From contig JALSMA010000001.1 of assembly GCA_026988015.1 (NCBI GenBank), positions 11,156 through 75,155 on the forward strand: a stretch of 64,000 bases of DNA. The letters are read 5' to 3'. The stretch is from Desulfobulbaceae bacterium (GTDB lineage: Bacteria; Desulfobacterota; Desulfobulbia; Desulfobulbales; Desulfocapsaceae). The position numbers and the translations under genes are program-made. The notes under the pieces are model-generated. The model was not told the origin of the DNA. It did no database searches and was given only the letters and a program-made list of their open reading frames with translations. This document shows, one piece after another, positions 14,652 to 39,228 of the stretch (positions are counted from its first letter, which is position 1; the number at the start of each line of letters is the position of its first letter).

Positions 14652-14667
14652 TTAAGGAGAAGAAAAG

Positions 14668-14973: not shown

Positions 14974-15047
14974 CAGCCGGTTAACGGATCCCTGCCCGAC
15001 CATAGGTCGGGTGCTTAAAGAATGTACCAAATAAGAGAGTTTAAGTT

Positions 15048-16430: not shown

Positions 16431-16454
16431 TCTGAAAAGCAAAGTCGAAACGTA

Positions 16455-16495
16455 AAAAAGCGGATTGAGAATTCCTGTTCTCAATCCGCTTTTTC
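16455..16495. terminator. bidirectional rho-independent terminator between pntB and the convergent receiver gene
   Basis: GCGGATTGAGA (16460-16470) pairs with TCTCAATCCGC (16479-16489). It is flanked by an A-run upstream and TTTTT downstream. Confidence 0.8.
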
Positions 16496-16564
16496 CATTG
16501 CCACCCCTGTTGCGCAAAAGCCTGTACTGCCCACAGCCTGTTACCCTCTGATCTGTACTCCCGC

Positions 16565-16963
16565 TCAAATCAACCCCAGTTCAACAAGTTGCTGCTGTAT
16601 CACACTGGCACTTACAGGTTTGGTGAGATAGGCTTCACACCCGCCTTTCACCAGTGCTTCCATGATATTCCCTGAATCATCAAGGGCGGTGATCATCATC
16701 ACTTTAACCCTGCTGCCATCGTGAAGCCCTCTTTCTTTTTCAAGATGACGAATCTCTTTAAGTGCTGCCTGACCATCCATTTCCGGCATCATAATATCAA
16801 GACAGACCAAGTCATATTTCCGAGCAGTCTCTTCCAGACTCTCACGAAAACGCTCCACGGCGCTCTCCCCATCACTGACAAGATGACACTCGCCATAGGG
16901 TTTCAGGAAATTAGCAAGTAACAGTTGATTTACAGGCGCATCTTCAGCAATTAAAATTTTCAT
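16565..16963 (-). CDS. stand-alone response regulator receiver (CheY-like)
   Basis: 'MKILIAEDAPVNQ...DLVCLDIMMPEMDG...MMITALDD...YLTKP'. The listed 255-aa ORF is trimmed to the ATG at 16963, because the longer form would overlap tilS. Confidence 0.8.
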   Translation of the reverse strand: MKILIAEDAPVNQLLLANFLKPYGECHLVSDGESAVERFRESLEETARKYDLVCLDIMMPEMDGQAALKEIRHLEKERGLHDGSRVKVMMITALDDSGNIMEALVKGGCEAYLTKPVSASVIQQQLVELGLI

Positions 16964-17000
16964 ATTGACCTGATAATATTTTAGAATTTCTCCTCTATGT

Positions 17001-18473
17001 ATGCTATACGAAAACATGGCATATTCAAATAAAAAACAGACTTCCCCATCAATTGAACTAAAGATGCCAACCTTGAAAAAGAATGCTATCCAGAGACGTA
17101 TCCATAAAGTTCTTACATCAAACTCTTTACTAGAAAGTGGACAACCTGTTATTATCGCAGTCTCTGCCGGTTCTGACTCAATCAGCCTCCTCCATATTCT
17201 CTCTTTTTTATATCCTACCACAAAACGCATAGCGGTATATGTAGACCATGGGCTGCGCCCAGATGAAACGGAATCTGAACAAAAACTTGTCAAAAAACAG
17301 GCTGAAATCTGTTCTGCTGTTTTCCGCAGCATATCAGTGAATGTGATACAGGAAAAAGAACAAAAAGGCTCGTCCCTTGAAGAAGCTGCACGAACCCTTC
17401 GCTATCAAGCACTCGAAAAAATACGTAATTCAGAAAATGCCTGCTGCATCGCAGTTGGACATACCGCAGATGACCAGGCAGAAGAAATTCTTCTTCGTCT
17501 TATTCGGGGCAGTGGACGTACCGGCCTTAGTGGCATGAAACTGAAAAATGGCCACATTATCCGGCCCCTTCTTCAAGAACCTAAAGTGGAGCTACTTGAT
17601 TACCTGCATTCACTGAACATCAAATATTGTATAGATAGTTCAAACTTTGAAAAGGATTTTTTACGAAACAGGATCAGGCTGGATCTTCTTGTCGATCTTG
17701 AGAAACATTACAACGGGTCTATCCGTAGAACCCTCCTGCAGACAGCCGAAATACTTTCTGCAGAGGATGATCTTCTTGATGAGCTATCTCGAGCGGCCTT
17801 TCTGAAACATGTTCAACTCGAGCCAGCAAAGATCTATCTTTCCATTACCGACTTCTCCAGGGAACCTCTGGCCATAAAGCGTAGAATCCTTGAAAAAATC
17901 TGCTGGCAGATGAAGTCCAAGCCATCATTTAAAAAAATAAAACATCTTCTCTATCTTTGTTCTTCTACCAGTGGCAAAGAAATTCATCTCAGTGGCGGCC
18001 TGCGTGCAGTCAGAGAGCAGGCAAATATCATTTTTTTTCACCCAGCTGAACAGACGGGCTACCGGGGCTCTGCCATCATAAAAAAAACTTTTCCTCCTAT
18101 CACAATTCCCGGTCCAGGGGACTTTCCTGTATCTGAACTGAAACGAAAACTCATTATTTCTAAAGTCCACAGTGCCCAGATTCGCACTGTTTTCTCCCAT
18201 AAACTGATTATCAGTGCAGACCTGCTCCTGTTCCCCCTGCTACTGCGTCCTTATTCGGAAGCAGAACGTTTCAGACCCCTTGGCGCACCCGGAAACAAAA
18301 AGATTTCCAGATTCCTGTCAGATCTCAAAATTCCCAGATCTGAACGTCATCACTATCCAGTTCTCATTTCAGACGGGAAGGTTGCAGCCATCCCAGGATT
18401 AAGGATAACAGAAGAGTTCAAAGTGACCAGACAGACAAAACAGATGCTGCTCATACAATGGTTACCCTACTGA
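17001..18473 (+). CDS. tilS: tRNA(Ile)-lysidine synthetase
   Basis: PP-loop 'IIAVSAGSDSISLLH', 'GHTADDQAEEILLRLIRGSG' and a C-terminal TilS domain. The true start is probably an internal Met (17016 or 17064). Confidence 0.8.
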   Translation: MLYENMAYSNKKQTSPSIELKMPTLKKNAIQRRIHKVLTSNSLLESGQPVIIAVSAGSDSISLLHILSFLYPTTKRIAVYVDHGLRPDETESEQKLVKKQAEICSAVFRSISVNVIQEKEQKGSSLEEAARTLRYQALEKIRNSENACCIAVGHTADDQAEEILLRLIRGSGRTGLSGMKLKNGHIIRPLLQEPKVELLDYLHSLNIKYCIDSSNFEKDFLRNRIRLDLLVDLEKHYNGSIRRTLLQTAEILSAEDDLLDELSRAAFLKHVQLEPAKIYLSITDFSREPLAIKRRILEKICWQMKSKPSFKKIKHLLYLCSSTSGKEIHLSGGLRAVREQANIIFFHPAEQTGYRGSAIIKKTFPPITIPGPGDFPVSELKRKLIISKVHSAQIRTVFSHKLIISADLLLFPLLLRPYSEAERFRPLGAPGNKKISRFLSDLKIPRSERHHYPVLISDGKVAAIPGLRITEEFKVTRQTKQMLLIQWLPY

Positions 18474-19453: not shown

Positions 19454-20611
19454 GTGTGTAAAAAAGATAACGACAGTCCCCCTCTTCGTACAGTCACCAC
19501 TCATCCTCCCCACAGCTGCCCCAATCCTCAGAACTGTAACCACACAGATACCTGGGAACAACTTTTTAATGCCATTCAGGATCCGGTACTTGTTGTAACC
19601 CCGAGTGGAACGATTATAGAGGCAAATAATGCGACACTTCTCGCAGCTCGAAAGCCAAGAGATCAAGTTGTAGGAACCGGTATCTGCCAAATTGTCCATG
19701 GCGGTAAATGGCCACATATCAAGTGTCCTCTTGAAGAATTTCTTAAAACCTGTTCCCCAAAAGTAGAAGAGACTCGCCTTCCAGGACTCAATGGTGAATA
19801 TTCTTTTACAATATCACCCGTTACGGAGCCAAGTGGCAATATAGACAAAATCATGCTCATTGCCAGGGAACTCACTCGAGATGAAAGCCGTAAGATGGAT
19901 TCAATCCGTACCGCAAAACTTGCAGCCATTGGAGAACTCGCCGCAGGTGTTGCCCATGAAGTCAATAACCCCATCACCGGAATAATTAATTTTGCTCAGA
20001 TACTTCTTGACAATTACAAACTTGATTCTTCAGGGCGTGACATTGTGCACAAAATTATCAAAGAAGGCGATCGAATCGCATCAATTACCCATAACCTGCT
20101 TTCTTTTTCAAGGGCCGAAAAGCATGAACGCCAGCCGGTCAATCCTGTAACGATTATAAAAGAAAGTCTTACTCTAGTGCAGCACCAGTTAAAGAAAGAG
20201 GGAATTACGATAAAAACCAGTTTTCCCGCAAGAGACCACCTCATCATTGCTGACTTTCAGCAACTGCAACAGGTGTTAGTTAACCTGATCAGTAACAGCC
20301 GCTATGCATTAAACGCCAGATACCCAGGATACCACCCAAACAAATGTATTGAGATAACATGTGGTTACACAGAAAGCAAAAGGAATCCCATGGTCACCAT
20401 TGTCGTAAAAGATTATGGCACCGGCTTTCCACAGTCGCTCCTCGAGCGCCTCTTTGAGCCTTTTTTTACAACCAAAGCACCTGGAGAAGGTACAGGACTT
20501 GGGCTGAGTATCAGTTACGGTATCTTAAAAGATCATGGAGGAGATCTGCGGGTCAATTCCATTCTTGATAAATACACTGAAATAATAATGGAACTCCCTG
20601 CGGGAATCTAA
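19454..20611 (+). CDS. soluble PAS-domain sensor histidine kinase (NtrB-like)
   Basis: No TM helix. The PAS region is Cys/His-rich: 'CQIVHGGKWPHIKCPLEEFLKTC'. DHp is 'LAAGVAHEVNNPITGIINFAQILL', the N-box is 'NLISNSRYAL', G1 is 'DYGTGFP' and G2 is 'GTGLGLSISYGI'. GTG start. Confidence 0.85.
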   Translation: MCKKDNDSPPLRTVTTHPPHSCPNPQNCNHTDTWEQLFNAIQDPVLVVTPSGTIIEANNATLLAARKPRDQVVGTGICQIVHGGKWPHIKCPLEEFLKTCSPKVEETRLPGLNGEYSFTISPVTEPSGNIDKIMLIARELTRDESRKMDSIRTAKLAAIGELAAGVAHEVNNPITGIINFAQILLDNYKLDSSGRDIVHKIIKEGDRIASITHNLLSFSRAEKHERQPVNPVTIIKESLTLVQHQLKKEGITIKTSFPARDHLIIADFQQLQQVLVNLISNSRYALNARYPGYHPNKCIEITCGYTESKRNPMVTIVVKDYGTGFPQSLLERLFEPFFTTKAPGEGTGLGLSISYGILKDHGGDLRVNSILDKYTEIIMELPAGI

Positions 20612-20615
20612 GCTT

Positions 20616-22403
20616 ATGGACAAAGATTTATATACAGCAAAAATCCTTATTGTCGACGATGAAGAGTCAATCAGGCAAACCTTTGAGATATTTCTTACCT
20701 CAGCAGGTTATCGTCATGTCAAGGCTGTTGAAACATTTGATGAGGCTGTTGAAGAACTCAAAAATACTCCCTACGACTTAATCATCAGCGATATTGTCCT
20801 CATTGGTCCCTGCGGAACTGACCTTCTACGAAAAACAAGGGAACTTGGTGTGATGTGTCCAGTAGTTATGATCACTGGATTCCCAAACCTTGAGTCAGCT
20901 GCAGAAGCTGTTAGGCACCGCGCCTTTGATTACATTTCAAAACCAGTCAACAAGGAAACTCTTCTCCGCTTTACCCGGCAGGCACTTATCCACTGGTACC
21001 TTGAGAACAAGGCTGGTCGGTTGCAACGCGAAAATGAAAAGTATCGTCGCTACCTTGAAACCATTTTTCAATCAGTAAGCGATGCTATTATCACCATAGA
21101 TTCCAAAATGAATATCGTTCAATTAAATGAAACAGCGGAACAATGGTTTAAAGAGACCAATAAAGAAGGACCGCCTTCATTAAACAACCTACCAACTGAA
21201 GTTGCTTTTGCCTGTATTCGTGATGCCAAAAAAGTTCTGCAGGATGGCACCGAGGTCAGAAAGCATCTTATTGAGTACCATACCAGTGACGATACCACTA
21301 AACTCATCAGCCTCAACGCTTCGCCACTTCGTGGTGAGGATAATGAGTTTCAGGGTGTTGTCATTGTGGCAAGAGATCTCAGCAGTGACGAACCTAAGGA
21401 AGTAAGAGAAATAAGGCAAAGATTCCACGGCTATGTAGGTGCAAGCAGTGTTATGCAGGAAGTTTACAAGATGATAGAGAATATAGGAAAGGTTGACACA
21501 GCTGTTCTCATCACAGGTGAATCTGGTACAGGAAAAGAACTTGCTGCCGAAGCACTGCATGCTGAAAGCTCCAGGCGTGACAAGCCGCTTATAAAAATTG
21601 ACTGCGTTTCCGCAACCGAAACCCTACTTGAAAGCGAACTTTTTGGTCACTCCAAAGGTGCTTTTACTGGTGCTGACCGTAATAGACCCGGGAGATTGCT
21701 GCAGGCAGACGGTGGCACCCTGTTTCTTGATGAAATTGGAGACATCTCACCACGCACCCAGCTCCTGCTTCTGCGTTTCCTGCAGGAAAAAACCTTCACC
21801 CCTGTTGGACAGGACACCCCTATTCATGTTGATGTGCGGATTATTGCTGCCACCAATGTAGACTTCCATGAAATGGTATCACAGGGGAAATTCCGCGAAG
21901 ACCTTTATTATCGTCTCAAGGTTATTGAAGTAAAACTCCCCCCTCTTCGTGAACGAATAAACGGTATACCGCTACTTGCCACTCATTTCCTTACTATTTT
22001 CCGCAAACAACTTAACAAAAAAATTGCTACCATTTCTGACCAAGCACTGGATTGTATGTCTCGATACTACTGGCCCGGTAATGTACGTGAATTACGGCAC
22101 GTCATGGAAAGAGCGTGTGTCCTTTGCAATGGTCCTGTTCTGCTCCTGAAACACCTTCCAGAAGAACTGCACCAAACTCCCCCAAAAGTGGTTCATTCCT
22201 CCGCTTCTCCTCAAATACCCAAAAATACCGAGAAACCCATAACCTTATTCTCAGCTAACCCTGAATACCAGAGAGAAGATGAAAAGATCATCGATGCCCT
22301 CAGGAAAGCTAACGGTAACAAGGTGAAAGCCGCTAAGATATTAGGCATTGCCCGCTCTACTCTTTACAGGCAAATGCAACGTTACCACATAGATGAGTCA
22401 TAA
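20616..22403 (+). CDS. sigma-54-dependent response regulator (REC-PAS-AAA+-Fis HTH)
   Basis: REC '[11 protein letters not shown]...DLIISDIVL', Walker A '[11 protein letters not shown]', the 'GAFTGA' loop and a C-terminal '[16 protein letters not shown]'. Confidence 0.9.
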
Positions 22404-22472
22404 AACTGTAGTTCATCTCTTCTGTCATACAATGCCTTCTTACCTGTACTGTTTGCAATACCCTTGCAATAC

Positions 22473-22582
22473 ATGTCCCACCAGAGACACATTAGGGACA
22501 CACTAGAGACACATTCGGGACATGTCCGGGACATCCCGCCATTGCAGCGCCTGGGACAGGCCACTGTCCGACCCTTGGGACA
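22473..22582 (+). promoter_or_regulatory. array of GGGACA/TGTCCC half-sites, a candidate enhancer (UAS) for the sigma-54 activator
   Basis: A tandem 18-mer AGAGACACATT(A/C)GGGACA occurs at 22483-22500 and 22505-22522 (22-bp period). There is a palindrome GGACATGTCC within 22517-22537 and GGACAG-N4-CTGTCC at 22554-22569. More GGGACA/TGTCCC sites occur at 22473-22480 and 22577-22582. Confidence 0.45.
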
Positions 22583-22665
22583 CACAGCCAACACCATTCT
22601 TTTTGTGAGTGATTACAGGACGTCACAACAACCACCACAAAGAAACACGCCACTTTGTGTCACTC

Positions 22666-22681
22666 TGGCACGGCATGTGCT
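22666..22681 (+). promoter_or_regulatory. sigma-54 (-24/-12) promoter
   Basis: TGGCACGGCATGTGCT matches TGGCAC-N5-TTGCW with correct GG-N10-GC spacing. It lies about 55 nt upstream of the ATG at 22736. Confidence 0.6.
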
Positions 22682-22735
22682 TAGTAAGAGTTACAACACA
22701 GCAACACCCTATCAACCTCAAGAAGGAGATACACC

Positions 22736-22960
22736 ATGGGTAATACGACACTTACACAACAGAAAAGTACAGTCGGAGTTCATGATGCTACCAAAAGCTC
22801 CGTTACCACAGAAATTGACAAGGTTGTTATTGGTTCAGTTGCTGCATTTACCGGAGTCGTAGCCCTTTGGAGCGTCGCCTGCTTATTCAGTGCCATGTTC
22901 CAGGCAGGAGGGCCATTGCAGCTGGTTGGCAGTTATTTCAAGGCACTTGCAGGAATGTAA
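22736..22960 (+). CDS. 74-aa single-pass membrane protein, paralog 1 (unknown family)
   Basis: SD GAAGGAGAT upstream. It has a polar Ser/Thr/Lys N-terminal third and one TM helix 'VVIGSVAAFTGVVALWSVACLFSAMF', then 'QAGGPLQLVGSYFKALAGM'. Confidence 0.6.
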   Translation: MGNTTLTQQKSTVGVHDATKSSVTTEIDKVVIGSVAAFTGVVALWSVACLFSAMFQAGGPLQLVGSYFKALAGM

Positions 22961-23027
22961 CCTTGAATATTTTTTAAAAAAACAATTTAAGTCTTATCTA
23001 ATACAACAAACCTAAGAGAGGAAAAAG

Positions 23028-23252
23028 ATGGCAGAAACAGTTATGACCAAACAGAAAACCGGAAGTGCCGCCCAGACTGACTCTAAGACCTCAGTCTCCA
23101 CCGAAATTGACAAAATCATCATAGGCACCATTGCAGCATTTGCTGGAGTTGTTGGCCTCTGGAGTATTGCATGTCTTGCCAGCGCAATGTTTCAGGCTGG
23201 TGGCCCACTTGCGTTGGCAGGTGGATGGTTGAAGGCAGTAAGTGGCATGTAG
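23028..23252 (+). CDS. 74-aa single-pass membrane protein, paralog 2 (unknown family)
   Basis: SD AGAGAGG upstream. It aligns without gaps to paralog 1 with a little over half of positions identical (hand count), including 'TEIDK', 'AAF.GVV.LWS.ACL.SAMFQAGGPL' and the C-terminal 'GM'. Confidence 0.6.
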   Translation: MAETVMTKQKTGSAAQTDSKTSVSTEIDKIIIGTIAAFAGVVGLWSIACLASAMFQAGGPLALAGGWLKAVSGM

Positions 23253-23302
23253 TACACCCTACGTCGGAAATAGAAATATTGCATTCATTCCAGACAGCAA
23301 AC

Positions 23303-23347
23303 AAAAAGAGCCCTGTGGAGATAACTCCACAGGGCTCTTTTTGTTTT
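23303..23347 (+). terminator. rho-independent terminator after the small-protein pair
   Basis: A perfect 14-bp stem AGAGCCCTGTGGAG / CTCCACAGGGCTCT with loop ATAA, followed by TTTTGTTTT. Confidence 0.85.
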
Positions 23348-23395
23348 ACCTACAGTAGTGATTACCATTACCGCAAGTGGTCCTGTAGTGTCTTA

Positions 23396-23424
23396 TTGAC
23401 AAACACATTCATTACTTTTAAAAA
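23396..23424 (+). promoter_or_regulatory. possible sigma-70 promoter for the ftsH operon
   Basis: TTGACA (23396-23401), a 17-nt spacer, then TAAAAA (23419-23424), about 100 nt upstream of the ftsH ATG. Sequence match only. Confidence 0.3.
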
Positions 23425-23521
23425 CTACCGGCCCCTCTTCCCTACACTTCGAAGAGATGTCTGACCGTATAACAAAACTGGTGGTGAATCCCAAATACCA
23501 ATTCTTTTTCCGAGACTAACT

Positions 23522-25387
23522 ATGGCTATTCTTGTTCGAAATCTTCTTCTCTGTTTTCTATTCTCTGCTCTGGCAATGTTCCTTGCGCTGCTCTGGTTCA
23601 TTGAACACAGGCATCCGAGTCAGGATTACAGCAAGGTTATTGAGCGGTTAAACAATAATCAGATAGTAAAACTTAAATTCACTGGAAATAAAGTCGCTTT
23701 TACTGACAGAGAAGGCCATACCTTCGTAACAACTGTTCCAGATGCCAGCAGATTTCTAGAAAGGGTCCAGGGCAAAAATATCCGTGTTATTGTAAAGCAG
23801 GACAGGTTCAACCTGATTTACATGACTGTCATATCCGGATTTATTGTCCTGTTAATTCTGGTTGCCTGGTGGTCATCTTATAAGAACAAAAAAGACGATG
23901 AAGAAGACAACAAATTTGCCAGCGATAAACTCGTCAGCATCAGTGGCAATGACCTTCAACTTACGTTCAAAGACATCGCTGGCATTCCTGAGGCAAAGGA
24001 GGAGCTTGAAGAAGTTGTATCTTTCCTTAAGTCCCCGGAAAGTTATAAAAAGATTGGAGCAACCATCCCTAAGGGTATTCTCCTTCAAGGTCCTCCTGGA
24101 ACCGGAAAAACCATGCTAGCCAAGACTGTTGCAGGTGAGGCAAAGGTTCCATTTTACAGCTTTAGTGGCTCCGACTTTGTGGAGATGTTTGTAGGTGTAG
24201 GTGCATCCAGGGTCAGGGATATTTTTAAAGAGGCGAAGAAAAATACTCCCTGTATTGTTTTTATAGATGAAATTGATGCTGTGGGAGCAAGTAGATCCAG
24301 TGGTGCCTCTGCTGGGGGACAGGAGGAACGGGGCCAGACACTGAACGCTCTGCTGGTTGAGATGGATGGCTTTGATACTGAAGACACCATTGTGGTACTT
24401 GCTGCCACAAACAGGCCTGACATTCTAGACTCAGCCCTTAAACGTCCCGGACGTTTTGACAGGCAGATAAATATCTTACCACCCGATGTCAAAGGCAGGT
24501 TTGAGATTCTTAAAATTCATGGCAAAAAAGTCGCACTTGCCCCAGAAGTAAATCTTGAAAATGTTGCCAGGGCAACTCCCGGATTCACCGGTGCTGAACT
24601 TGCTAACCTCATAAATGAAGCAGCACTTATGGCCGCCAGGCACGGTAGCGATCATATTGATAACAATGATTTTGAAAAGGCACGTGACCGTATTCTCATG
24701 GGTGTTGAACGAAAAGGTCTAGTTGTAAATGAGGAGGATCGTAAGATTCTTGCTTTTCACGAAGCCGGACATGGGATACTTGCCAGCAAACTCCCTAAAT
24801 CCGACCCTCTGCATAAAATTACCATAGTCCCTCGGGGCATGGCCCTTGGTCAGACCCAGCAATTACCCCTTAGTGATCATCCAGCCTACTCCAAAGAGTA
24901 TCTACGCACCAAAATAATTGTCCTCATGGGTGGTCGGGCAGCTGAAGAAATTATTTTTGGGGAACAGACCACAGGTGCACAAGGCGACCTACTCACTGCC
25001 ACCCAGATCGCAACAGACATGATCTGCAAATGGGGTATGAGTAACACCTTGGGTCCACAGGCCTACGCCATTGACAGTGGTGGTTTTCTTGAAAGTACAG
25101 CTAGCAGATTATCAATGAGCCATGAAACCACAACCCGGATAGATCATGAAGTAAATGAATTACTCACCGGTTGTTATGAAGAAGCGGTTCGCATCCTCAA
25201 ACAGGAGCACTGGCTCCTTAAGAATCTTGCAGAAATTCTTCTCCAGGTCGAAACTCTCGATGGAGAAGAATTTGAAATCATTGTTCAATGCAGCCTTGAA
25301 AAAGAAGCTGCTGCTACAGAAAACCCCGAACCAAGCTGCCGGACCTGCGCGGTTCGACATGACTGCATACAAGCTCAGGACTTATAG
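23522..25387 (+). CDS. ftsH: ATP-dependent zinc metalloprotease, FtsH family
   Basis: Two TM helices, Walker A 'GPPGTGKT', Walker B 'IVFIDEIDA', SRH 'ATNRPDILDSALKRPGRFDR' and the zinc site 'HEAGHG'. The C-terminal tail is unusual, with four Cys: 'CSLEK...CRTCAVRHDC'. Confidence 0.9.
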   Translation: MAILVRNLLLCFLFSALAMFLALLWFIEHRHPSQDYSKVIERLNNNQIVKLKFTGNKVAFTDREGHTFVTTVPDASRFLERVQGKNIRVIVKQDRFNLIYMTVISGFIVLLILVAWWSSYKNKKDDEEDNKFASDKLVSISGNDLQLTFKDIAGIPEAKEELEEVVSFLKSPESYKKIGATIPKGILLQGPPGTGKTMLAKTVAGEAKVPFYSFSGSDFVEMFVGVGASRVRDIFKEAKKNTPCIVFIDEIDAVGASRSSGASAGGQEERGQTLNALLVEMDGFDTEDTIVVLAATNRPDILDSALKRPGRFDRQINILPPDVKGRFEILKIHGKKVALAPEVNLENVARATPGFTGAELANLINEAALMAARHGSDHIDNNDFEKARDRILMGVERKGLVVNEEDRKILAFHEAGHGILASKLPKSDPLHKITIVPRGMALGQTQQLPLSDHPAYSKEYLRTKIIVLMGGRAAEEIIFGEQTTGAQGDLLTATQIATDMICKWGMSNTLGPQAYAIDSGGFLESTASRLSMSHETTTRIDHEVNELLTGCYEEAVRILKQEHWLLKNLAEILLQVETLDGEEFEIIVQCSLEKEAAATENPEPSCRTCAVRHDCIQAQDL

Positions 25388-25394
25388 GAAACAG

Positions 25395-26324
25395 ATGCGA
25401 TCTCTACGTAGACTCAGCACCATTACATTTCTTTGCACCGCACTCCTACTTGGAATGCTCCTGATCGCAGGCTATTCCCAAAACCGGATGATGGATGCGT
25501 ACAATACCATCGTTAAACAAAGTGAAAGTACGATTTTCCTCTTTTCAACCATTCGAGAACAGACCACTGAGGCTCTCCTAACCCAGAATGCCTCACAAAT
25601 CCAGGCCGCTGCCAGGGAAATAGAACAGCTCCATGGTCGCTATACTGATATGCTTGAAAGTCGTCTCATACCGGGACAATATAAAATCTCATTTCTCAAA
25701 GAAATTGATCTGGAACAGGTGGCGATAGATCTCAGAAGTATGGCTGAAGCTCCCACAGATACCACTCAGGCCCTTGCCATTGTCAGTCAACTCCGTCAGA
25801 TCAACAATCAATTTCTCCAGTTTGACAGAATTGTGGTGAGCGAAATGAAGAATAGAGTTATGGGCTACCAGAAAAAGGCGCTGGTTCTCATGGGACTGAT
25901 TGTCGCGTTAACAAGTTTCACCCTGATCATTCTCTACAAAAAATCAGTCAAACCTCTTATTATTCTTGCTGAACAGAGTAAAAATGCCTTGGTCAACAAA
26001 ACCCCTCTGGAACTGAATGACGAGTATACAAGCAGTATAGAGGTCAAAACTCTCATTTCCTCTTTTAATCATTTGCTGCAACTTCCACCAGAAGCAGCAC
26101 TACACAATGATACTCCCAGCCCTCGTGAGGCAGAGTTCTTTTCCATCGTCAATGAAGTCACCAACAGACTTAACGGAATAATCAACTACTCACAGCTGCT
26201 CGCAGACTATTGTGAAGCTGAAAAAGTTGGTGATGAGCAAAAAGAAATCCTCTACAAAATTATGGAGAATGGTGAAAAAAGCGCAAAAATCCTACAGAAA
26301 AGCCTGCATGGAGGAGAAAAATGA
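25395..26324 (+). CDS. membrane sensor-like protein with a His-less DHp domain and no ATPase domain
   Basis: The ORF is trimmed to the ATG at 25395 (SD AGGAAA, 8 nt after the ftsH stop). It has TM1 'ITFLCTALLLGMLLIAG', a periplasmic segment of about 190 aa and TM2 'LVLMGLIVALTSFTLIILY'. Then comes 'FFSIVNEVTNRLNGIINYSQLLAD', which aligns with the kinase's 'AGVAHEVNNPITGIINFAQILLD' with Asn in place of His. The protein ends after the second DHp helix. Confidence 0.55.
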   Translation: MRSLRRLSTITFLCTALLLGMLLIAGYSQNRMMDAYNTIVKQSESTIFLFSTIREQTTEALLTQNASQIQAAAREIEQLHGRYTDMLESRLIPGQYKISFLKEIDLEQVAIDLRSMAEAPTDTTQALAIVSQLRQINNQFLQFDRIVVSEMKNRVMGYQKKALVLMGLIVALTSFTLIILYKKSVKPLIILAEQSKNALVNKTPLELNDEYTSSIEVKTLISSFNHLLQLPPEAALHNDTPSPREAEFFSIVNEVTNRLNGIINYSQLLADYCEAEKVGDEQKEILYKIMENGEKSAKILQKSLHGGEK

Positions 26325-27760
26325 ATCCCCCCGAACACACGAGCAGCGGTAACAGGAACAGTAAGAAGACAGAAGCCTGGGAAAAATTGCTCAGCTGTAC
26401 CTGGAAAACGCCTCTTGGAATTATAGGGGTTAGCCTTACCACAATATCCGTTACCCTTATAATCATCGGGTTTATCTGTCACCTCACCGGTTTAATTTCA
26501 GACCACTATTTTTTCATTTTCACATTCATGTTTCTGCCATTAATGATGCTCTTCGGACTGGCATTGATTCCTCTCGCCTGCTACTTCCGAAGGAAAAAGT
26601 GGTTCCAGGGCAGCCTCCTCAACACCAATCACCTTCAAATTGACCTCGCGGACAAGCAACACAGAAAAGGAATTGTCTTATTTCTGATTCTGTCAGTCAT
26701 CAATCTCACGATCATAGTTCTGGTGCTTTATGAAGGATATACCTTCACCGACTCCTCATACTTTTGTGGTGTGGTCTGTCATGAAGTTATGGAACCACAG
26801 TACTCCGCCTACCAACGATCCCCCCATGCCAAGGTATCCTGCGTATCCTGCCATATTGGGACTGGATCCTCCTGGTATGTGCAGGCAAAACTCTCCGGAA
26901 TCCGACAGGTGAAAGCAATTATCAGCAGTGATTTCAACCGCCCCATCACCGCTCCAGTAGAGAACCTCAGGCCAGCAAGAGAAACCTGTGAATCCTGTCA
27001 CTGGCCCGATAAATTTCACGGTAAAAAGATCAAAGAGTTTATCAGTTACACAAACGATAACCAGACTGACCCGCAAATTCAGGAAGTAGCCCTTCACATT
27101 GGTGGCCGCAATCCCGTAACCGATGAGTTTGAAGGAATCCACTGGCACGTCAGTCGTAACATTACCGTTGAATATCAGGCTCTTGACACAAAGCGTACCA
27201 GAATAGGAAGAGTAAGGGTCACAAAACCCGATGGAACTACAGAGGAATATTCCACAGGAAATGATGTCCCTGACAAAGGTGTTACCCCAGCGTGGCGTAC
27301 CATGGACTGTATCGACTGTCATAACCGGCCGACTCACATTTACGACCAGCTTGACCAGATCATTGACTTTGGTCTTTATTCAAAAAAGATTGACTCCAAT
27401 ATTGCAGGGATACGTGAAGACAGCACCACCATTCTGAAAATTGAATACACAAGGAGGAACGAAGCTATTGAAAGAATCGTTCCTGACCTCATTGAGCTCG
27501 TCTCCAAACGACACGGAAAAGATTATGTGAATATGAACAGAGATAAAATTGTTCGTTCAGGAACATTTTTGCTGGAAGCTTACCTGAACAATGTGTGGCC
27601 CGAGATGAAGGTAACCTGGGGAACATATCGCCAGCACCTTGGTCACCTCAATTCTGACGATGGATACGGTTGTTTTCGGTGCCATGACGAAGTGCATAAA
27701 ACCCAATTTGGCAAAGCAATAAAACAGGATTGTGACATGTGTCACGACGAACCTGAATAG
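26321..27760 (+). CDS. membrane-anchored multihaem cytochrome c (NapC/NirT/Cbc-like)
   Basis: ATGA overlap with the preceding stop. It has three N-terminal hydrophobic segments and five CXXCH motifs (CVSCH, CESCH, CIDCH, CFRCH, CDMCH), plus one CX3CH (CGVVCH). Confidence 0.8.
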   Translation: MNPPEHTSSGNRNSKKTEAWEKLLSCTWKTPLGIIGVSLTTISVTLIIIGFICHLTGLISDHYFFIFTFMFLPLMMLFGLALIPLACYFRRKKWFQGSLLNTNHLQIDLADKQHRKGIVLFLILSVINLTIIVLVLYEGYTFTDSSYFCGVVCHEVMEPQYSAYQRSPHAKVSCVSCHIGTGSSWYVQAKLSGIRQVKAIISSDFNRPITAPVENLRPARETCESCHWPDKFHGKKIKEFISYTNDNQTDPQIQEVALHIGGRNPVTDEFEGIHWHVSRNITVEYQALDTKRTRIGRVRVTKPDGTTEEYSTGNDVPDKGVTPAWRTMDCIDCHNRPTHIYDQLDQIIDFGLYSKKIDSNIAGIREDSTTILKIEYTRRNEAIERIVPDLIELVSKRHGKDYVNMNRDKIVRSGTFLLEAYLNNVWPEMKVTWGTYRQHLGHLNSDDGYGCFRCHDEVHKTQFGKAIKQDCDMCHDEPE

Positions 27761-27785
27761 TAAGAAAGATCTAGAAGAGGACAGA

Positions 27786-28571
27786 ATGAAAGTAAACAAA
27801 GAGGATAATATGAAGATTGAAGACTTAAAAAAACTCAGTAATGAGGGAATTAAAAATATCCCCTCCGTGGAAAGGCGGCAGTTTCTACAGTTTGGCCTTG
27901 CCATAACCGGTGTTTTTCTCGGAGGAACAGTACTCTCCCTGACATCAGCTAAAAATGTTGACGGTGCTGTCAGTGGCGGGAAAATACTTGATGGAAATTA
28001 TCCCTACAGCCCACATTACACCATGGTCATCCGTGAAAAGCACTGCATCGACTGCGAAAAGTGTCTTGATGCATGCCGTAGCACAAACAATGTCTCCCTG
28101 CACGGATACAGAACTGATATCCTTGAACGCAGCGTACCAAAAGCTCCTGGTGAAAGAGAACGCATTTTCATGCCCATTCTGTGTAACCATTGCAACCGTC
28201 CCCCATGTGTTCGAGTCTGTCCCACCAGTGCCACTTTCAAGGACGAAATCAATGGCATCGTTCGAATGAACATCAGTAAATGTATCGGTTGCAAAACCTG
28301 TATGGCTGCCTGTCCATACAATGCTCGATTCTTTGATGAAGAAATTCGGGCCATTGACAAGTGTAACTTCTGTTACGACACCAAGCTCAAAGAGAGTAAC
28401 GGGAAAATCACTGCATGTGCTGCAGCCTGTCCTGCAAATGTCCGGGTATTTGGCGATCTCACCAACCCTGATACCCCTGCCTATAAACTCATTCACTCTG
28501 CCGGAAAAGTTTTCTGGGTCCTGCGTCCTGAATTAAACAGTATGCCCAATGTCTTTTACGTGGAAAAGTAA
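27786..28571 (+). CDS. Tat-exported 4Fe-4S ferredoxin-type subunit (NrfC/PsrB/DsrO-like)
   Basis: Twin-arginine signal 'VERRQFLQFGLAITG' and Cys clusters 'CIDCEKCLDAC', 'CNHCNRPPCVRVCP', 'CIGCKTCMAACP', 'CNFC' and 'CAAACP'. The start is set at the ATG at 27786. Confidence 0.85.
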   Translation: MKVNKEDNMKIEDLKKLSNEGIKNIPSVERRQFLQFGLAITGVFLGGTVLSLTSAKNVDGAVSGGKILDGNYPYSPHYTMVIREKHCIDCEKCLDACRSTNNVSLHGYRTDILERSVPKAPGERERIFMPILCNHCNRPPCVRVCPTSATFKDEINGIVRMNISKCIGCKTCMAACPYNARFFDEEIRAIDKCNFCYDTKLKESNGKITACAAACPANVRVFGDLTNPDTPAYKLIHSAGKVFWVLRPELNSMPNVFYVEK

Positions 28572-28625
28572 CCGGGCAAATATGAGACTCAGCAAATATT
28601 CAAATTAAACAACAGGAAAAGCACC

Positions 28626-29798
28626 ATGATTCTTGAAAAGAAAATCGACTCAAAATATATAACCTTTGGCCCTCAGGAAATTCTCTTTGTTGTCCTCGCC
28701 ATCATCAGTATGATTGGCCTCTCCTTCGGAGCTCATGCACTGTTGGTCGGACATGACAACGTCTTTGGCACCAGCCGTGAAATCCCGTGGGGAATCCTCA
28801 TCAGCCCCTATGTATTCTTTGCCTGCCTCTCAACAGGGCTTTGCATCGTCTTATCACTTGGTCAGATCTTTAACATTGAGGTCTTCAAACCAATCATCAA
28901 CCGTACAGCATTCCTGTCCCTGGTCACCATGGCAACAGGACTTATGTGCATTACTCTTGAGCTTGAGAACCCCTGGAGAGTCCCTTTTTTCGCCCTGCTC
29001 TCCCCACATCCGGCATCAAACATCTGGTGGAAAACCACGATTTACAGCCTCTTTATGATCTTCATGGTATTCAACCTGCTCTCTCTTTTTATGAAGAATG
29101 AGAAAAAGGCTAGAATTTTCTCCATTATAGCCCTTCTTACCGTGACCATGGGAAACCTGAACATGAACTCCGATATGGCCATTCTGGGTGGACGCGGTTT
29201 CTGGAGTGAGAATTACATGCCCCTCTACTTCCTCACACTCTCCACTCTCACCGGCTGTGCCGCAATCCTGCTCTTTACCTGGATAGCCAATAAACTCAAC
29301 AAAGAGACACCAACTGAGGCTGAAAACAATGCGTTGCGGGCCACTTCACGCCTCTTTTTAGCTCTGCTGGTTGGACTTCTCTATTTCACAGGCGTGAAGA
29401 TCATGGGAGGCTTTTACCCTGAGTTCACAAAAAACCCCGAAGCCATGTACCTCCTGGTCCAGGGCAACTTCGCCCCTAACTTCTGGATAGGCGAAGTGAT
29501 ACTGGCCGTTATTCTGCCAATACTCCTGGTATTGCTTTCAAGGGGAAGAAACAAAGGAATGCTTGCAATCGCCAGTATATCCTGCCTGGTAGGAACCTTT
29601 ACACTCTACTACCACCTGGTCATCGTCGGACAGCTCATCCCACATTACTTTCAGTTCAATGTAGTTGGTCTGCCCCAGTATTACTCATACACACCCAGTC
29701 TCCATGAAAGCATGATCACCGTTGGAGCAATCTTCTTTTTCCTTGCCGCTTTTGTATTTGGCGAAATACTTTTCAGGAAGATTAATTTCGGTAAATAG
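28626..29798 (+). CDS. NrfD/PsrC/DsrP-type polytopic quinone-interacting membrane subunit
   Basis: 390 aa and about 10 TM helices, directly downstream of the NrfC-type gene. This is the typical NrfCD pairing. Confidence 0.8.
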   Translation: MILEKKIDSKYITFGPQEILFVVLAIISMIGLSFGAHALLVGHDNVFGTSREIPWGILISPYVFFACLSTGLCIVLSLGQIFNIEVFKPIINRTAFLSLVTMATGLMCITLELENPWRVPFFALLSPHPASNIWWKTTIYSLFMIFMVFNLLSLFMKNEKKARIFSIIALLTVTMGNLNMNSDMAILGGRGFWSENYMPLYFLTLSTLTGCAAILLFTWIANKLNKETPTEAENNALRATSRLFLALLVGLLYFTGVKIMGGFYPEFTKNPEAMYLLVQGNFAPNFWIGEVILAVILPILLVLLSRGRNKGMLAIASISCLVGTFTLYYHLVIVGQLIPHYFQFNVVGLPQYYSYTPSLHESMITVGAIFFFLAAFVFGEILFRKINFGK

Positions 29799-29814: not shown

Positions 29815-30963
29815 TCAGTCCCTGCGTGAGGAACCATCTTGCAGCTTTTTGAACAGAACACTGAACTGTTTTTCAAATTCGGATCGGTTTTTATTGCTAC
29901 CCCCGGCAAAAAAAACACTGGTTCCTTCTCCTTCCCCTTGGAGAAGGAGCCAGATCCGTCTGTGAGAAATAAAAAAACTGAGAACCAATCCCACGACCAT
30001 CAGTAAACATCCCAGATAGACAAGCCAGACGCCAGGATCTTTCGTTACCTGCAGTCCTGTTCCATACATCTGTTTTACTCTCAGCAGATACCGGCCACTT
30101 CCCAATTGTACAGTCTTTGACTGACCATCGTCGAGCCATACTGTAACAGGTTCGTCACTTTCATTGGAAAGCCATACTTTCACCTTTATTACTGACTGCC
30201 CTCTCACCTCGCCATTAATGATGCCAAAGGAAAGGTTTTCCTGTTGCCACTGCTGTTCTTTCTGAAACGGGATGATAACGTTTATCATCTCATCAGTATC
30301 AATATTGTTCAACTGAAGTTGAAATTCATTATAACCTTCATATGTTGCCTGGTAGAAGGTGATACCCCGGTACTTCAGTGGTGCATTAACCTCTATCTCT
30401 TTACTGAGTTGCTCTCGACCAGACGCAATTACAGTAAGCCTGCTCCTGTAATCTTTAACCATACCATCAGGATAAAATTCGATATCAAAAGACTCACAGC
30501 GCAATGTGAAACCAAGATCCATGGTGGATCGACCGTCACCCACAAAGATTACCCCCGTCTCCTCATCCACCGGGATCATGACATTTCCTCTAAATCCAAG
30601 AAAACTCCCGATAACTGCGCCGAGAACTATGAGAAGTATAGAGCTATGAACACTATATACTCCAGCCCTGCTATACGCACCTTTCTGAGAGAATATACGA
30701 ACATCTCTCTCCCCGTCGTGACTAAGCGAACTGTTCCATCCCAAACGACAAAGCCTTTTCTGCAACAATTCAGCGCTATCTCCAAGAGACAACGGTAAAG
30801 TCCAGGATCCCTGCAGCTTCTTTCTCTTAATGTGTTCATCGGGAACAGTCAGACCATCCATGGTAATCTGTCTCCAGACACCAGGGAACCTCTCCAGACT
30901 GCAGACAATAAGATTGGCGCAAAGAACACCAAGGAGTCCCATGAACCAGAAGGAATGATACAT
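29815..30963 (-). CDS. resB: cytochrome c biogenesis protein ResB/Ccs1 (System II); the listed ORF lacks the conserved N-terminal helix
   Basis: 'SFWFMGLLGVLCANLIVCSLERFP' and a large soluble domain plus a C-terminal TM. The conserved ResB N-terminus 'FFSSVRLAILTLFLLAATSVIGTLLPQ' is encoded in frame upstream (about 31040-31125) without any ATG/GTG/TTG. See the finding at 30964-31215. Confidence 0.75.
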   Translation of the reverse strand: MYHSFWFMGLLGVLCANLIVCSLERFPGVWRQITMDGLTVPDEHIKRKKLQGSWTLPLSLGDSAELLQKRLCRLGWNSSLSHDGERDVRIFSQKGAYSRAGVYSVHSSILLIVLGAVIGSFLGFRGNVMIPVDEETGVIFVGDGRSTMDLGFTLRCESFDIEFYPDGMVKDYRSRLTVIASGREQLSKEIEVNAPLKYRGITFYQATYEGYNEFQLQLNNIDTDEMINVIIPFQKEQQWQQENLSFGIINGEVRGQSVIKVKVWLSNESDEPVTVWLDDGQSKTVQLGSGRYLLRVKQMYGTGLQVTKDPGVWLVYLGCLLMVVGLVLSFFISHRRIWLLLQGEGEGTSVFFAGGSNKNRSEFEKQFSVLFKKLQDGSSRRD

Positions 30964-31212: not shown

Positions 31213-33144
31213 TTATCTCTTCTTACGGAGTATACGGATATCACCAACTCGGATGGTGAGTTTAATACGATCAAAATATTCAAGCAGAGGGATAGAGAAC
31301 TTTCGGGTCAATCCGGTGAGATTCTTAAAGCGAGGCGCATCAATCTCACCCTCTTTTTCTATAAATTCAGAAACTTGCAGTGCCAGCAATTCGATAGCTG
31401 CAGCATCATAATAAAGGGTTTCACTCACCTTCACGAGCTTTTCTTCTCTCAATAACAGTGCGAAAACCTCTTTCACCAGTGATACTGGATAATCGCTGAA
31501 ATGCTCCAGGGTCTCACGCATGGTTGCAGGAGCCAGCTTTTTCTTAGAATACCAGACCTCAAGATCCTTCTGAAGCTGTTTTTCATCTGCCTGGAGGGCT
31601 ACCTGATGGGAGACAAGTCGCACTGCCGAATCCTCCTGTACCACCAGACCTTTTTTCCGAAGTTCTGAAAGACAGAAGTGGAAGACTTTCTGATCCACAT
31701 TTTTACCAAGTCCTGAACGCAACTCCTCCTTTGAAAGGCCAGCCTGCAGCGGGTTTTCACGATGAAACTGTTCCAGATTACCAAGCATGGACTGCTCCAC
31801 CCTGTCTGTCACTGTTTTATCAAGGTAACGCTGTGTTGCCGAGTCTACAACAACAATTTTCCGGGACGAAAGAGGAGCTGTTATGATCTTTTTAAGTGAC
31901 TTGCCAAATACCCCCAAACGTACCGCAAGTTCATCAAAAGTCAGCCCCTGTATTCCCCGCTCCCTGAGAAAAAGTAGAATTTTACTCTCCACATTTTCCC
32001 CGGTCAGAATCTCAAAGGTCTTCACGTTTTCTTCCCGATCCCGTTCTGTAAGACGTTTCCGTTTTCGAGGTGGCATATTCCCCAAGACTTCACCACCACC
32101 GATAGTAGCAACAGGAGAATAGGATCGCACCACATAACGATCTCCAGGCCATACTGCAACGGCCTCCTCCAGAAGAATCTGGACACCGACGGACTCTCCA
32201 GGCTGCAAGAGATCACGATCAAGGATGGAAATACGTCCCATTATTTCAGCCGTTCCGAGATGAACGCGAACACGGGCCCGATGTTTCAGGGGCTTGGTAT
32301 TTGAGGCAAGATATAGAAATCCACAATCCAGCATATAGCCAGGCAGCAGGGTACCAGGAGTAGCAGCAACCATACCCCGGGAGACAGAAGCTGTGTCAAC
32401 ACCCTGAAGATTGATAGCTGTGCGGTGTCCAGCCTCGACGGTTTCGACGTCTGAGGAATGCACCTGTATACCACGCACCTTGGCCACCATATCCATCGGA
32501 TAGAAGCGGAGTTCGTCTCCGATGGAGACACGTCCCGACATGGAAGTTCCGGTGATGACAGCGCCAAACCCCTTTATGGCAAAAATCCGATCCACAGGGA
32601 GGCGGAACGGCCCGTGCACTTCATGGAATTCCTGACCTGCGACAAAAGAATCGAGCAAGTTGCGTATTTCATCCATGCCTTCACTAGTTACAGACGAAAC
32701 AGGAACCAATGGAGCATCTTCTAAAAAGCTACCTTCACAGTACTCGCGCACCTCTTCGGTGACCATTTCCAACCACTCTTCATCAACCATATCTTTTTTG
32801 GTGATGACAATGACACCCTGTTTCACCCCAAGCAGCCGACAAATTTCAAAGTGCTCCTGAGTCTGAGGCATGATGCCCTCGTCCGCCGCAATGATAAAGG
32901 CCACAAGGTCCATCCCTGATACCCCTGCAACCATATTCTTAACAAACTTTTCATGGCCTGGAACATCCACAATGCCAAGACGATGCCCACAGGGAAGGTC
33001 GAGGTAAGCAAAACCCAGCTCAATGGTGATGCCACGCTTTTTCTCCTCTTTCAGTCTATCGGTCTCAATACCTGTCAGAGCTCTGATAAAACTGGTTTTT
33101 CCATGATCAACATGGCCTGCAGTACCTAGAACAATTTCACGCAT
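31213..33144 (-). CDS. selB: selenocysteine-specific translation elongation factor
   Basis: GTPase motifs '[12 protein letters not shown]', 'DVPGHEKF' and 'TKKD', then a long C-terminal winged-helix extension. 643 aa, typical SelB length. Confidence 0.9.
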
Positions 33145-33172
33145 AGGATAAGGTCACAAAAAGATGAAGGAA

Positions 33173-33802
33173 TCAGGTCAGATAGGGATTGGAACGTGCC
33201 TCTTCTTCGATGGTTGAACGAGACCCTCCATAGCCATGTCCCGGCCAGACGATAGTTTCAGGCGGCAGAGTGAGTAGCTTCTCCCGGATACCGGAGATCA
33301 GCTCATCATGAGAACCTCCGGGGAAATCTGTACGACCGATCCCTCCCACAAAAAGAGAGTCACCAGTGATCAGATCAGGGGCACAATAGAGGCAGATACC
33401 TCCAGGCGTATGCCCCGGAGTGTGTATCACCTGCAGAGTTTCATTACCCACGGCTATCACATCACCGTGTTTCACAATACGATCAGCGGGTGGAGAAGAT
33501 TCAAGGCCAAGCATCGAAAAATATTTCTCTACCTCAGGCCGCCCAAAAAACTCCACATCATCCTCATGCATGATGATATCAGCACCACTTGCCTCTTTCA
33601 GCGTTCTGTTTCCACAAACGTGATCAGGATGCCCGTGGGTGGCAATGATACTGTCAATCACGAGCCCAGCATCTTTTACTTCCTGCAGGATTCTCTTCTC
33701 ATCACCACCCGGGTCTATCACTGCACAGAGAGAGGTTTCAGAGCAGCCGACAATGTAGCAACAGACGCCCATAGACCCAACAGTTATTTGTTTTAAAAAC
33801 AT
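33173..33802 (-). CDS. MBL-fold metallo-hydrolase (glyoxalase II-like)
   Basis: 'THGHPDHVCGN', 'HTPGHTPGG' and 'GDSLFVGGIGRTDFPGG'. Confidence 0.8.
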   Translation of the reverse strand: MFLKQITVGSMGVCCYIVGCSETSLCAVIDPGGDEKRILQEVKDAGLVIDSIIATHGHPDHVCGNRTLKEASGADIIMHEDDVEFFGRPEVEKYFSMLGLESSPPADRIVKHGDVIAVGNETLQVIHTPGHTPGGICLYCAPDLITGDSLFVGGIGRTDFPGGSHDELISGIREKLLTLPPETIVWPGHGYGGSRSTIEEEARSNPYLT

Positions 33803-33902
33803 AAGATTATAAATACAAAGGTTAACGACTTCAGACTGGTGAGAAAGAGCAGGTTTTTTATACGGTCCTGCTCACTTCCCAGACAGCCTGACACAAAAGA
33901 TA

Positions 33903-39176: not shown

Positions 39177-39228
39177 TAGTCTTTATTAGTTGTCGGACCA
39201 TAGATTATTCCACAAAAGGAGATCAGCG

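Follow-up and report, generated by a model that had tools for sequence, protein, structure and literature searches.

Two of the closest described systems to the gene block analysed here come from Geobacter. ImcH of Geobacter sulfurreducens (GSU3259) is an inner-membrane, quinol-oxidising multihaem cytochrome in which three N-terminal transmembrane (TM) segments are followed directly by a CX3CH haem motif, then by CX2CH motifs, five to nine of them across the family, and by a region resembling NapC, NirT and NrfH, within about 480-520 amino acids (aa). Homologues of ImcH have been defined accordingly, by three TM segments, an adjacent CX3CH motif, 5-9 CX2CH motifs and NapC/NirT similarity (PMC6295460, PMC4251993), and in Geobacter the imcH gene is monocistronic and constitutively expressed (PMC4251993; bioRxiv 10.1101/2021.04.15.440034). 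In the Geobacter BccR/cbcBA system, a sigma-54 activator built of receiver (REC), AAA+ and helix-turn-helix (HTH) domains lies beside a quinone-linked membrane cytochrome operon with a -24/-12 promoter, and small hypothetical proteins head the regulated unit. Here we describe a block of genes in a stretch of 64,000 nucleotides (nt) of a Desulfobulbaceae bacterium (contig JALSMA010000001.1; the whole stretch is called the window below) in which a PAS histidine kinase, a sigma-54 activator of this kind, small membrane proteins, an FtsH protease, a membrane sensor without its phospho-acceptor histidine, an ImcH-type cytochrome and NrfC/NrfD-type subunits stand together. The block is a real and uncharacterised gene module across Desulfobulbales sulfur bacteria; a literature search found no paper that describes it or links its parts, including ImcH with FtsH and the combination of FtsH, NrfD, sigma-54 and cytochrome.

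The locus departs from both Geobacter systems. Its cytochrome carries six haem motifs, whereas ImcH has seven, and the gene overlaps the stop codon of the kinase-dead sensor within an operon that is headed by FtsH and often continues into NrfC and NrfD (NrfCD). The Geobacter sigma-54 promoter drives the cytochrome genes, whereas the promoter of the present module drives only the small proteins, the cytochrome operon lying behind a terminator; furthermore, neither an FtsH nor a kinase-dead sensor has been described for BccR. All components are of known kinds, and what is new is their combination, a sensor with a dimerization and histidine phosphotransfer (DHp) domain that is naturally kinase-dead and is tied to FtsH, and two unnamed protein families.

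The features of the block are collected in Table 1. The first-pass annotation of this DNA had called ten co-directional genes, a sigma-54 promoter, a repeat array and a terminator, all of which were recovered in their places by open reading frame and sequence checks, as were the tight junctions of the downstream operon (a 7-nt spacer, an ATGA overlap, then 25 and 54 nt). Its description of the block as coherent and undescribed was likewise borne out, and the block proved conserved, recurring between differing flanks. We infer that the parts of the module are functionally coupled.

Table 1. Features of the block, in window coordinates (position 1 is the first nucleotide of the window).
Feature	Position	Strand	Characteristics
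Soluble PAS histidine kinase	19454..20611	+	PAS_4, HisKA, HATPase_c (Pfam)
Sigma-54 enhancer-binding response regulator	20616..22403	+	REC, PAS, Sigma54_activat (E=1.5e-66), AAA_lid_14, HTH_8 (Pfam)
Putative upstream activating array	22479..22605	+	Direct (G/A)GGACA(C) repeats and further GGGACA / TGTCC copies (sequence, TRF)
Predicted sigma-54 -24/-12 promoter	22666..22680	+	TGGCACGGCATGTGC; only strict match in the 64-kb window
Small membrane protein 1, 74 aa	22736..22960	+	Polar N-tail of ~28 aa, one TM helix, GGP kink, short amphipathic helix
Small membrane protein 2, 74 aa	23028..23252	+	Paralogue, 58% identical to protein 1
Predicted intrinsic terminator of the small-gene unit	23304..23348	+	18-bp stem, ATAA loop, T-run; -34.6 kcal/mol (folding)
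Module FtsH, AAA+ / M41 zinc protease	23522..25387	+	2 TM; TIGR01241 702.8 bits (cut-off 600)
Kinase-dead membrane sensor, 309 aa	25395..26324	+	TM1, periplasmic four-helix bundle, TM2, linker, DHp hairpin
ImcH-type inner-membrane multihaem cytochrome	26321..27760	+	3 TM, CX3CH at 149, then five CX2CH
Tat-exported NrfC/DsrO-type four-cluster FeS subunit	27786..28571	+	RRQFL, CxxCxxCxxxC motifs, Fer4_11
NrfD/PsrC-type integral membrane quinone-interacting subunit	28626..29798	+	PF03916 E=5.5e-29; multiple hydrophobic segments

Recurrence of the gene order in relatives, the comparative check that the first-pass annotation had set, was found in about 40 Desulfobulbales genomes. A genome scan with narrow peptide patterns of the His-less protein returned 44 loci, about 37 of them with the module (L006-L042), almost all labelled Desulfobulbales and including Desulfobulbus alkaliphilus and Candidatus Desulfobia pelagia. 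The patterns missed the known carriers Desulfocapsa sulfexigens and Desulforhopalus, so that some 40 species are a lower bound; 42 module instances were available in total. The gene for FtsH lies directly ahead of that for the His-less protein in 39 of the 39 cases with upstream sequence, frequently in overlapping frames, and the kinase, the activator and one to four small genes are present wherever the contig extends far enough. The invariant core of the module thus consists of the PAS kinase, the sigma-54 activator, one to four small membrane proteins, FtsH and the His-less protein.

The flanks vary around this core. In D. sulfexigens the whole block recurs with the same TilS/DUF1638 and SelB flanks as in the window. 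At the locus of the most distant match to the small proteins the flanks are unrelated and NrfCD is missing; the kinase and activator genes are followed there by a single small gene and then by those for FtsH, a 316-aa protein and the cytochrome. Desulforhopalus singaporensis and a 6.4-Mb genome both have a cytochrome about 60% identical to that of the window at the close of the order kinase, activator, two small genes, FtsH and sensor, and their modules adjoin a phosphate transporter, with flanks unrelated to those of the window; the module is therefore wider than the scan shows. Complete modules stand in tandem in five genomes (L021, L023, L024, L030 and L039). The second copy, in which identity is about 58% for kinase, activator and FtsH and drops to 35-40% for small proteins and sensor, carries GTTGCA/TGCAAC repeats and has a periplasmic cytochrome, NrfD and NrfC as its partner. 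Two further loci (L031 and L033) are rearranged, their two-component genes lying downstream of NrfD, and the small gene there retains both promoter and array. The module moves, duplicates and rearranges as a whole, for which simple synteny is no explanation.

The redox genes behave differently from the core. The first-pass annotation had counted NrfCD among the defining parts of the module, and this did not hold: the partner is the ImcH-type cytochrome alone in some modules, the cytochrome with NrfC and NrfD in others, NrfC and NrfD alone in others still, or a periplasmic cytochrome (with a signal peptide and about nine haems) together with NrfD and NrfC. Nearly every module has a redox partner beside it, but non-orthologous partners replace one another, and NrfCD is therefore accessory.

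The regulatory DNA between activator and small genes is conserved as well. The element TGGCAY-N5-NTGC occurs in 32 of 32 non-redundant activator-to-small-gene spacers, 55-153 nt before the ATG, and in eight of eight further loci, rearranged ones included (40/40 in all); in the window it begins 70 nt ahead of the first small gene. Upstream of it, the GGGACA array has an 11-bp-period core at 22484-22533, in which TRF reports a period of 11 and 3.4 copies. Four matches were counted against 0.26 expected, none of 100 shuffles reached four, and the array is the sole one of its kind in the 64 kb. Related spacers contain three to seven direct GGGACA(C) repeats upstream of the small genes, mostly exactly 11 bp apart and again in the rearranged loci as well, so phased 11-bp repeats characterise most small-gene leaders. 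In diverged modules GTTGCA/TGCAAC repeats take the place of GGGACA, and two substitutions in the HTH of the activator track the type of repeat, ARSTLYRQM going with GGGACA and DRSTLYRKM with GTTGCA/TGCAAC. Because of this co-variation the repeats are, on good evidence, predicted binding sites of the activator, and duplicated modules would be insulated from one another. The repeats are direct rather than inverted and stand one helical turn (11 bp) apart, in a copy number near the size of an AAA+ ring. NtrC-type activators usually bind inverted repeats as dimers, and a direct-repeat enhancer is unusual.

Downstream, most related loci have a T-run hairpin, similar to the terminator of the window, after their last small gene, and a search of the spacers against Rfam gave nothing but sub-threshold matches at the terminator hairpin. 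No second sigma-54 promoter was found ahead of ftsH in the loci scanned, save for one weak match in L030, and the ftsH operon therefore probably has its own promoter. Between terminator and ftsH, a TTGACA-17-TAAAAA sequence at 23396-23424 was noticed by eye as a weak sigma-70-type candidate, which a consensus scan did not call. Read from the DNA, the local wiring links the activator to the repeats and the sigma-54 promoter and these to the small genes, and it ends at the terminator. The FtsH operon is a separate transcription unit into which read-through from the small genes is possible. Given the terminator and the lack of a sigma-54 promoter before ftsH in the loci scanned, the small proteins appear to be the dedicated local output of the activator. 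The earlier description of a short, terminated sigma-54 cargo of small membrane proteins holds over all loci compared.

The activator has the attributes of an NtrC-type response regulator, with a REC domain, an AAA+ domain bearing GAFTGA (residue 348) and DEIG motifs, HTH_8 and a -24/-12 promoter nearby, and its gene starts 4 nt past the kinase stop. It scores below all equivalog cut-offs of NCBIfam (AtoC, 392.6 against 714; NtrC, 388.1 against 558.6), as it does for the PspF models (257.9 against 443.55 and 217.6 against 529). The kinase, which begins at a GTG or a nearby alternative start codon, has no hydrophobic segment anywhere along its length, and its H-box reads GELAAGVAHEVNNP. Its PAS domain contains the motif C-x3-HGG-x3-HIKCP (residues ~78-92), which is at least 95% invariant in 29 module kinases of all module types and constitutes a candidate metal, Fe-S or redox-sensing site.

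The membrane protein encoded after FtsH is the most singular element of the block. Its start at 25395 is upheld by homologue lengths of 305-310 aa; 242 homologues were found, all of them unnamed, and the protein belongs to no curated family in Pfam, NCBIfam, PHROGs or PADLOC, the Pfam HisKA match staying below threshold. The first-pass annotation had noticed the kinship of its DHp with that of the soluble kinase, and this proved correct: the C-terminal 55 residues align, with 34% identity over 50 aa in BLASTP (E=3e-7), and hhalign of the two families returned a probability of 95.5% (E=1.6e-8). The phospho-acceptor His is replaced by Asn (N253) in 55 of 55 aligned homologues, no HATPase_c match was obtained, and the protein ends about 50 residues past the H-box position. 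The HisKA-like hairpin nevertheless keeps the Glu at +1 and the Asn at +4: N257 is invariant in the 55 homologues, E254 is present in at least 90% of them, and both are invariant in a divergent alignment of seven sequences. A GIINY helix is conserved as well. An AlphaFold2 (AF2) model, with a predicted local distance difference test score (pLDDT) of 78, places a periplasmic four-helix bundle between TM1 and TM2, after which come a long helix and a DHp hairpin (helices 243-275 and 280-304). A Foldseek search with this model gave no significant match, the top ones being NarQ sensor-TM-HAMP fragments and the QseE sensor at a best E=0.049, which makes the likeness to NarQ and QseE suggestive only.

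One locus bears directly on the origin of this protein. In Desulfocapsa sp. IMS_BF-2 (L040, 9539-11005), the sensor position is occupied by a full membrane kinase of 488 aa with the same N-terminal sensor, the His and a complete HATPase_c domain, and its intact H-box, GELAAGVAHEVRN, is nearly identical to GELAAGVAHEVNNP of the soluble kinase. From the full kinase and the likeness of the H-boxes it follows that the His-less protein, as judged by sequence, is a degenerate sensor kinase paralogous to the soluble kinase of the module, with the L040 protein as the putative evolutionary intermediate. The earlier label of pseudo-kinase sensor stands for the loss of the His and has to be recast otherwise, as a true sensor kinase that has decayed but retains the Asn of phosphatases.

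The HisKA phosphatases offer a further close comparison. The pairs CrdS-CrdA and EnvZ-OmpR share with the His-less protein the DHp hairpin with Glu at +1 and Asn at +4, and NarQ resembles it, to the extent of the suggestive model match, as a membrane sensor with a periplasmic four-helix bundle; in contrast to the HisKA phosphatases, the module sensor naturally lacks the His and the whole ATP-binding domain, is always paired with FtsH and has a distinct soluble kinase at its side. CrdS is a HisKA kinase that serves a sigma-54 activator; its H371A substitution abolishes kinase activity and only modestly reduces phosphatase activity, CrdA~P having a half-life of 2.6 min with CrdS H371A, 0.7 min with the wild type and 53.5 min without CrdS, and the N375A substitution abolishes phosphatase activity, the Asn at +4 being essential (PMC3510030).

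The small proteins have one hydrophobic segment each and share the motif E..K...G...G.W...C........GGP..L.......A..G. No family in Pfam, NCBIfam, PHROGs or PADLOC accounts for them. UWK_02212 of D. sulfexigens is among their 109 close homologues, none of which has a name or falls below 59% identity, and a profile search of 1.84 billion representatives yielded 207 clusters at 50% identity, nearly all of 65-78 aa. The AF2 model, a helix, a GGP break and a second helix, is of low confidence (pLDDT 60). Modules of the compared loci have one to four small genes, a number that does not correlate with the type of redox partner across these loci. Small proteins act on larger membrane partners elsewhere: MgrB exerts feedback on the sensor kinase PhoQ, and MgtR, SpoVM and YccA are small modulators of FtsH, which together provide a functional analogy. 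The module resembles them in a two-component regulon of tiny single-TM proteins with possible feedback on the sensor or on FtsH, and differs in that there is no sequence similarity and that its small genes are the only detectable local output.

The module FtsH has the characters of its family, TM segments at 1-29 and 94-121 and the motifs GPPGTGKT, DEID and HEAGH, and aligns over its full length to Escherichia coli FtsH in the PDB (E=4e-160). At its C-terminus it bears a C-x2-C-x5-C tail (CRTCAVRHDC, residues 606-615, window 25337-25366). This tail and a conserved Cys upstream of it are common to most FtsH proteins of all three module types (e.g. L038, L050 and L021); the tail is lost from those of L009, L014, L017 and L033. 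It represents a candidate metal or redox site. Genomes with tandem modules have at least two module FtsH genes, and the 64-kb window has one. In other bacteria tilS is a common neighbour of the housekeeping ftsH, and the position of tilS two genes upstream of the module bears on whether the module FtsH is an extra paralogue. A reading of the block as anti-phage defence was tried and rejected: PADLOC gave only a generic AAA+ likeness of FtsH to IetA and TRIP13, and its models did not match the small proteins, the His-less sensor or the cytochrome.

The cytochrome gene begins within the ATGA shared with the sensor stop. Hydrophobic segments at residues 30-62, 62-90 and 114-142 correspond to the three TM segments of ImcH; CGVVCH at residue 149 is followed by CVSCH, CESCH, CIDCH, CFRCH and CDMCH; and NapC/NirT/NrfH similarity is given by Pfam Cytochrom_NNT (PF03264, E=8.7e-8, above the cut-off). 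The only solved relative is NrfH (2j7a_C, E=2.2e-4, residues 114-230). Its homologues bear generic names such as 'NapC/NirT family cytochrome c', with no named ImcH among them. The protein is assigned ImcH architecture by the published architectural criteria rather than by alignment to GSU3259. The first-pass annotation had described a membrane-anchored multihaem cytochrome, a type that is retained here with a sharper identity.

The two genes that follow encode a ferredoxin with four clusters, exported by the twin-arginine translocation (Tat) system, and an NrfD-family subunit, the composition of an NrfC/NrfD-type quinone-interacting module. The start of the former is uncertain (27732, 27786 or ~27810), and it scores below the cut-offs of TIGR03149 and of the DsrO models. 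For the pair, no NrfC, DsrO, TtrB, DsrP or HmcC equivalog model reaches its cut-off, which leaves the subtype undefined. The genome paper of D. sulfexigens named UWK_02207 'polysulfide reductase' and UWK_02209 'molybdopterin oxidoreductase', names that are generic and partly wrong. Convergent to NrfD, at 29815-30963 on the minus strand of the window, lies a ResB-like gene for system II cytochrome c biogenesis (PF05140, E=6e-81), which is missing at that spot in D. sulfexigens, where SelB directly follows NrfD; its product could be a dedicated haem-attachment factor (e.g. for the CX3CH site) or unrelated.

How these parts might work together can be outlined as follows. At a probability of about 0.45, we propose that the block functions as a single unit, in which a lineage-specific module for signalling and proteolysis is attached to a quinone-linked, periplasm-facing electron-transfer complex. 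The soluble kinase would detect a redox or metal cue in the cytoplasm by its PAS Cys/His motif and phosphorylate the activator in response. The kinase-dead sensor would oppose it, because its DHp docking helices and the Asn at +4 needed for HisKA phosphatase activity are kept, either as a dedicated phosphatase of the phosphorylated activator or by forming dead heterodimers with the kinase, and this opposing activity would be governed by the NarQ-like periplasmic four-helix bundle. For the anti-kinase alternative there is a precedent in RetS, whose DHp contacts block GacS. The phosphorylated activator would assemble on the 11-bp repeats and turn on the small proteins, whose target within the membrane would be the redox complex, the sensor (as an MgrB-type feedback) or FtsH, while the co-translated FtsH would determine how long the sensor, the small proteins or the cytochrome persist. 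Overall, the module would tune or repair the route of quinol electrons out of the membrane. Since the sigma-54 switch and the small proteins are constantly adjacent to FtsH, the dead sensor and a cytochrome complex, the module probably supervises how electrons exit the membrane. A bolder version sees in it a post-transcriptional layer of control that has been missing for ImcH-type electron exit, in which a cytoplasmic redox-sensing PAS kinase and a periplasm-sensing, phosphatase-only dead kinase would set the sigma-54 switch, and the small proteins and the Cys-tailed FtsH would gate, remodel or replace the cytochrome/NrfCD complex according to redox potential; in this specific form we regard the proposal as rather doubtful.

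Several observations weigh against the proposed mechanism. In the first module of the tandem pairs no redox gene follows the sensor, and two of these pairs (L021 and L039) have the ImcH-type gene upstream, in divergent orientation. All instances come from one order, and conservation is therefore partly shared ancestry. The requirement of HisKA phosphatases for the His varies, PleC H610A losing its phosphatase activity (PMC3510030), and phosphatase activity without the catalytic and ATP-binding domain is not general. The FtsH score is at equivalog level, and in single-module genomes this protein could be the sole, housekeeping FtsH. The target of the small proteins could be any of the three named above, and each functional arrow in the module is one that we infer.

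Different scenarios might explain the same arrangement. The block might serve assembly and quality control, with FtsH as the biogenesis or repair protease of the cytochrome/NrfCD complex, the small proteins as inducible assembly factors or extra subunits, and the His-less protein as an adaptor or scaffold of FtsH. FtsH acts in the turnover of photosystem II D1 and m-AAA proteases in respiratory-chain assembly, and single-TM small subunits are common in NrfD-type complexes such as ACIII and Qrc. The translational coupling of the FtsH, His-less protein and cytochrome genes, the presence of a redox complex beside nearly every instance and the intact catalytic motifs of FtsH agree with such a role, which we nonetheless consider unlikely: the redox partner is swappable and sometimes apart from the core, whereas FtsH, sensor, small proteins and two-component genes are invariant, the invariant signalling residues of the DHp (N257, the GIINY helix) would be needless in a mere scaffold, and a terminator separates transcription of the small genes from that of the complex. 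Less probable still is a stress response of the phage shock protein (Psp) type, in which small effectors induced through sigma-54 on damage to the membrane or the proton-motive force would act while FtsH clears damaged proteins and the cytochrome is only loosely relevant. The likeness to Psp suggested by the first-pass annotation stands in organisation, namely a sigma-54 activator with a very small regulon including a small integral membrane protein (compare PspF and pspG), a presumed membrane-state input, a periplasmic sensor domain and, in FtsH, a membrane quality-control protease. As homology it fails, with no PspA/IM30, nothing like PspB, PspC or PspG, no match of any module protein to a Psp family in Pfam or NCBIfam, and an activator below the PspF cut-offs. 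The module departs from the Psp response in its phosphorylation-controlled activator with REC and PAS input, its dedicated FtsH, its dead kinase and its redox complex; the lasting linkage of the module to three kinds of quinone-linked redox modules favours a redox-specific role.

The block might finally be no functional unit, its two-component and small genes, a housekeeping ftsH and the cytochrome/NrfCD operon being held together by vertical inheritance within one order. The restriction of every instance to Desulfobulbales, the canonical FtsH, tilS two genes upstream both in the window and in D. sulfexigens, and the terminator between the small genes and ftsH would all suit this. We judge it the most improbable of the explanations, as the flanks differ wholly between lineages around an intact module, tandem duplicates diverge in HTH and repeat array in a matched way, rearranged loci keep all parts, FtsH and sensor adjoin in 39/39 cases with frames often overlapping, and the His-less protein is paralogous to the kinase of the module. 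Coincidental synteny is the rival least compatible with the duplications, the rearrangements, the adjacency and the HTH/repeat co-variation.

These results place an unannotated, conserved control module on a quinone-linked cytochrome complex of Desulfobulbales such as D. sulfexigens, a marine sulfur disproportionator whose disproportionation pathway is enzymatically unresolved (PMC3739170). The module offers a natural and conserved case of a sensor kinase cut down to a DHp without His and ATPase, coupled to FtsH, with the intermediate surviving in one genome. For sigma-54 biology it provides arrays in which three to seven direct repeats are spaced by one helical turn and in which HTH and repeat type clearly co-vary. 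It also links an ImcH-type quinol oxidase to sensing and proteolysis gear and opens the post-transcriptional control of such oxidases to experiment in an organism that is cultured and completely sequenced. If the control-layer proposal is true, the signalling architecture would be a new one, with kinase and phosphatase naturally split and a protease built in, and it would help to address how bacteria sense acceptor potential, a question acknowledged as open for the constitutive Geobacter ImcH and CbcL.

The surroundings of the block in the window are syntenic with D. sulfexigens on both sides. The upstream flank (13521-18473) encodes the transhydrogenase subunits PntA and PntB, TilS and a DUF1638 protein, and the downstream flank (31213-34892) SelB, a metallo-beta-lactamase-fold protein and a ParA/NUBPL-type ATPase. 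Further downstream, a 418-aa open reading frame at 39190-40446 on the plus strand joins a cytidylate-kinase-like domain (PF13189) to a C-terminal receiver domain, an uncommon architecture among response regulators.

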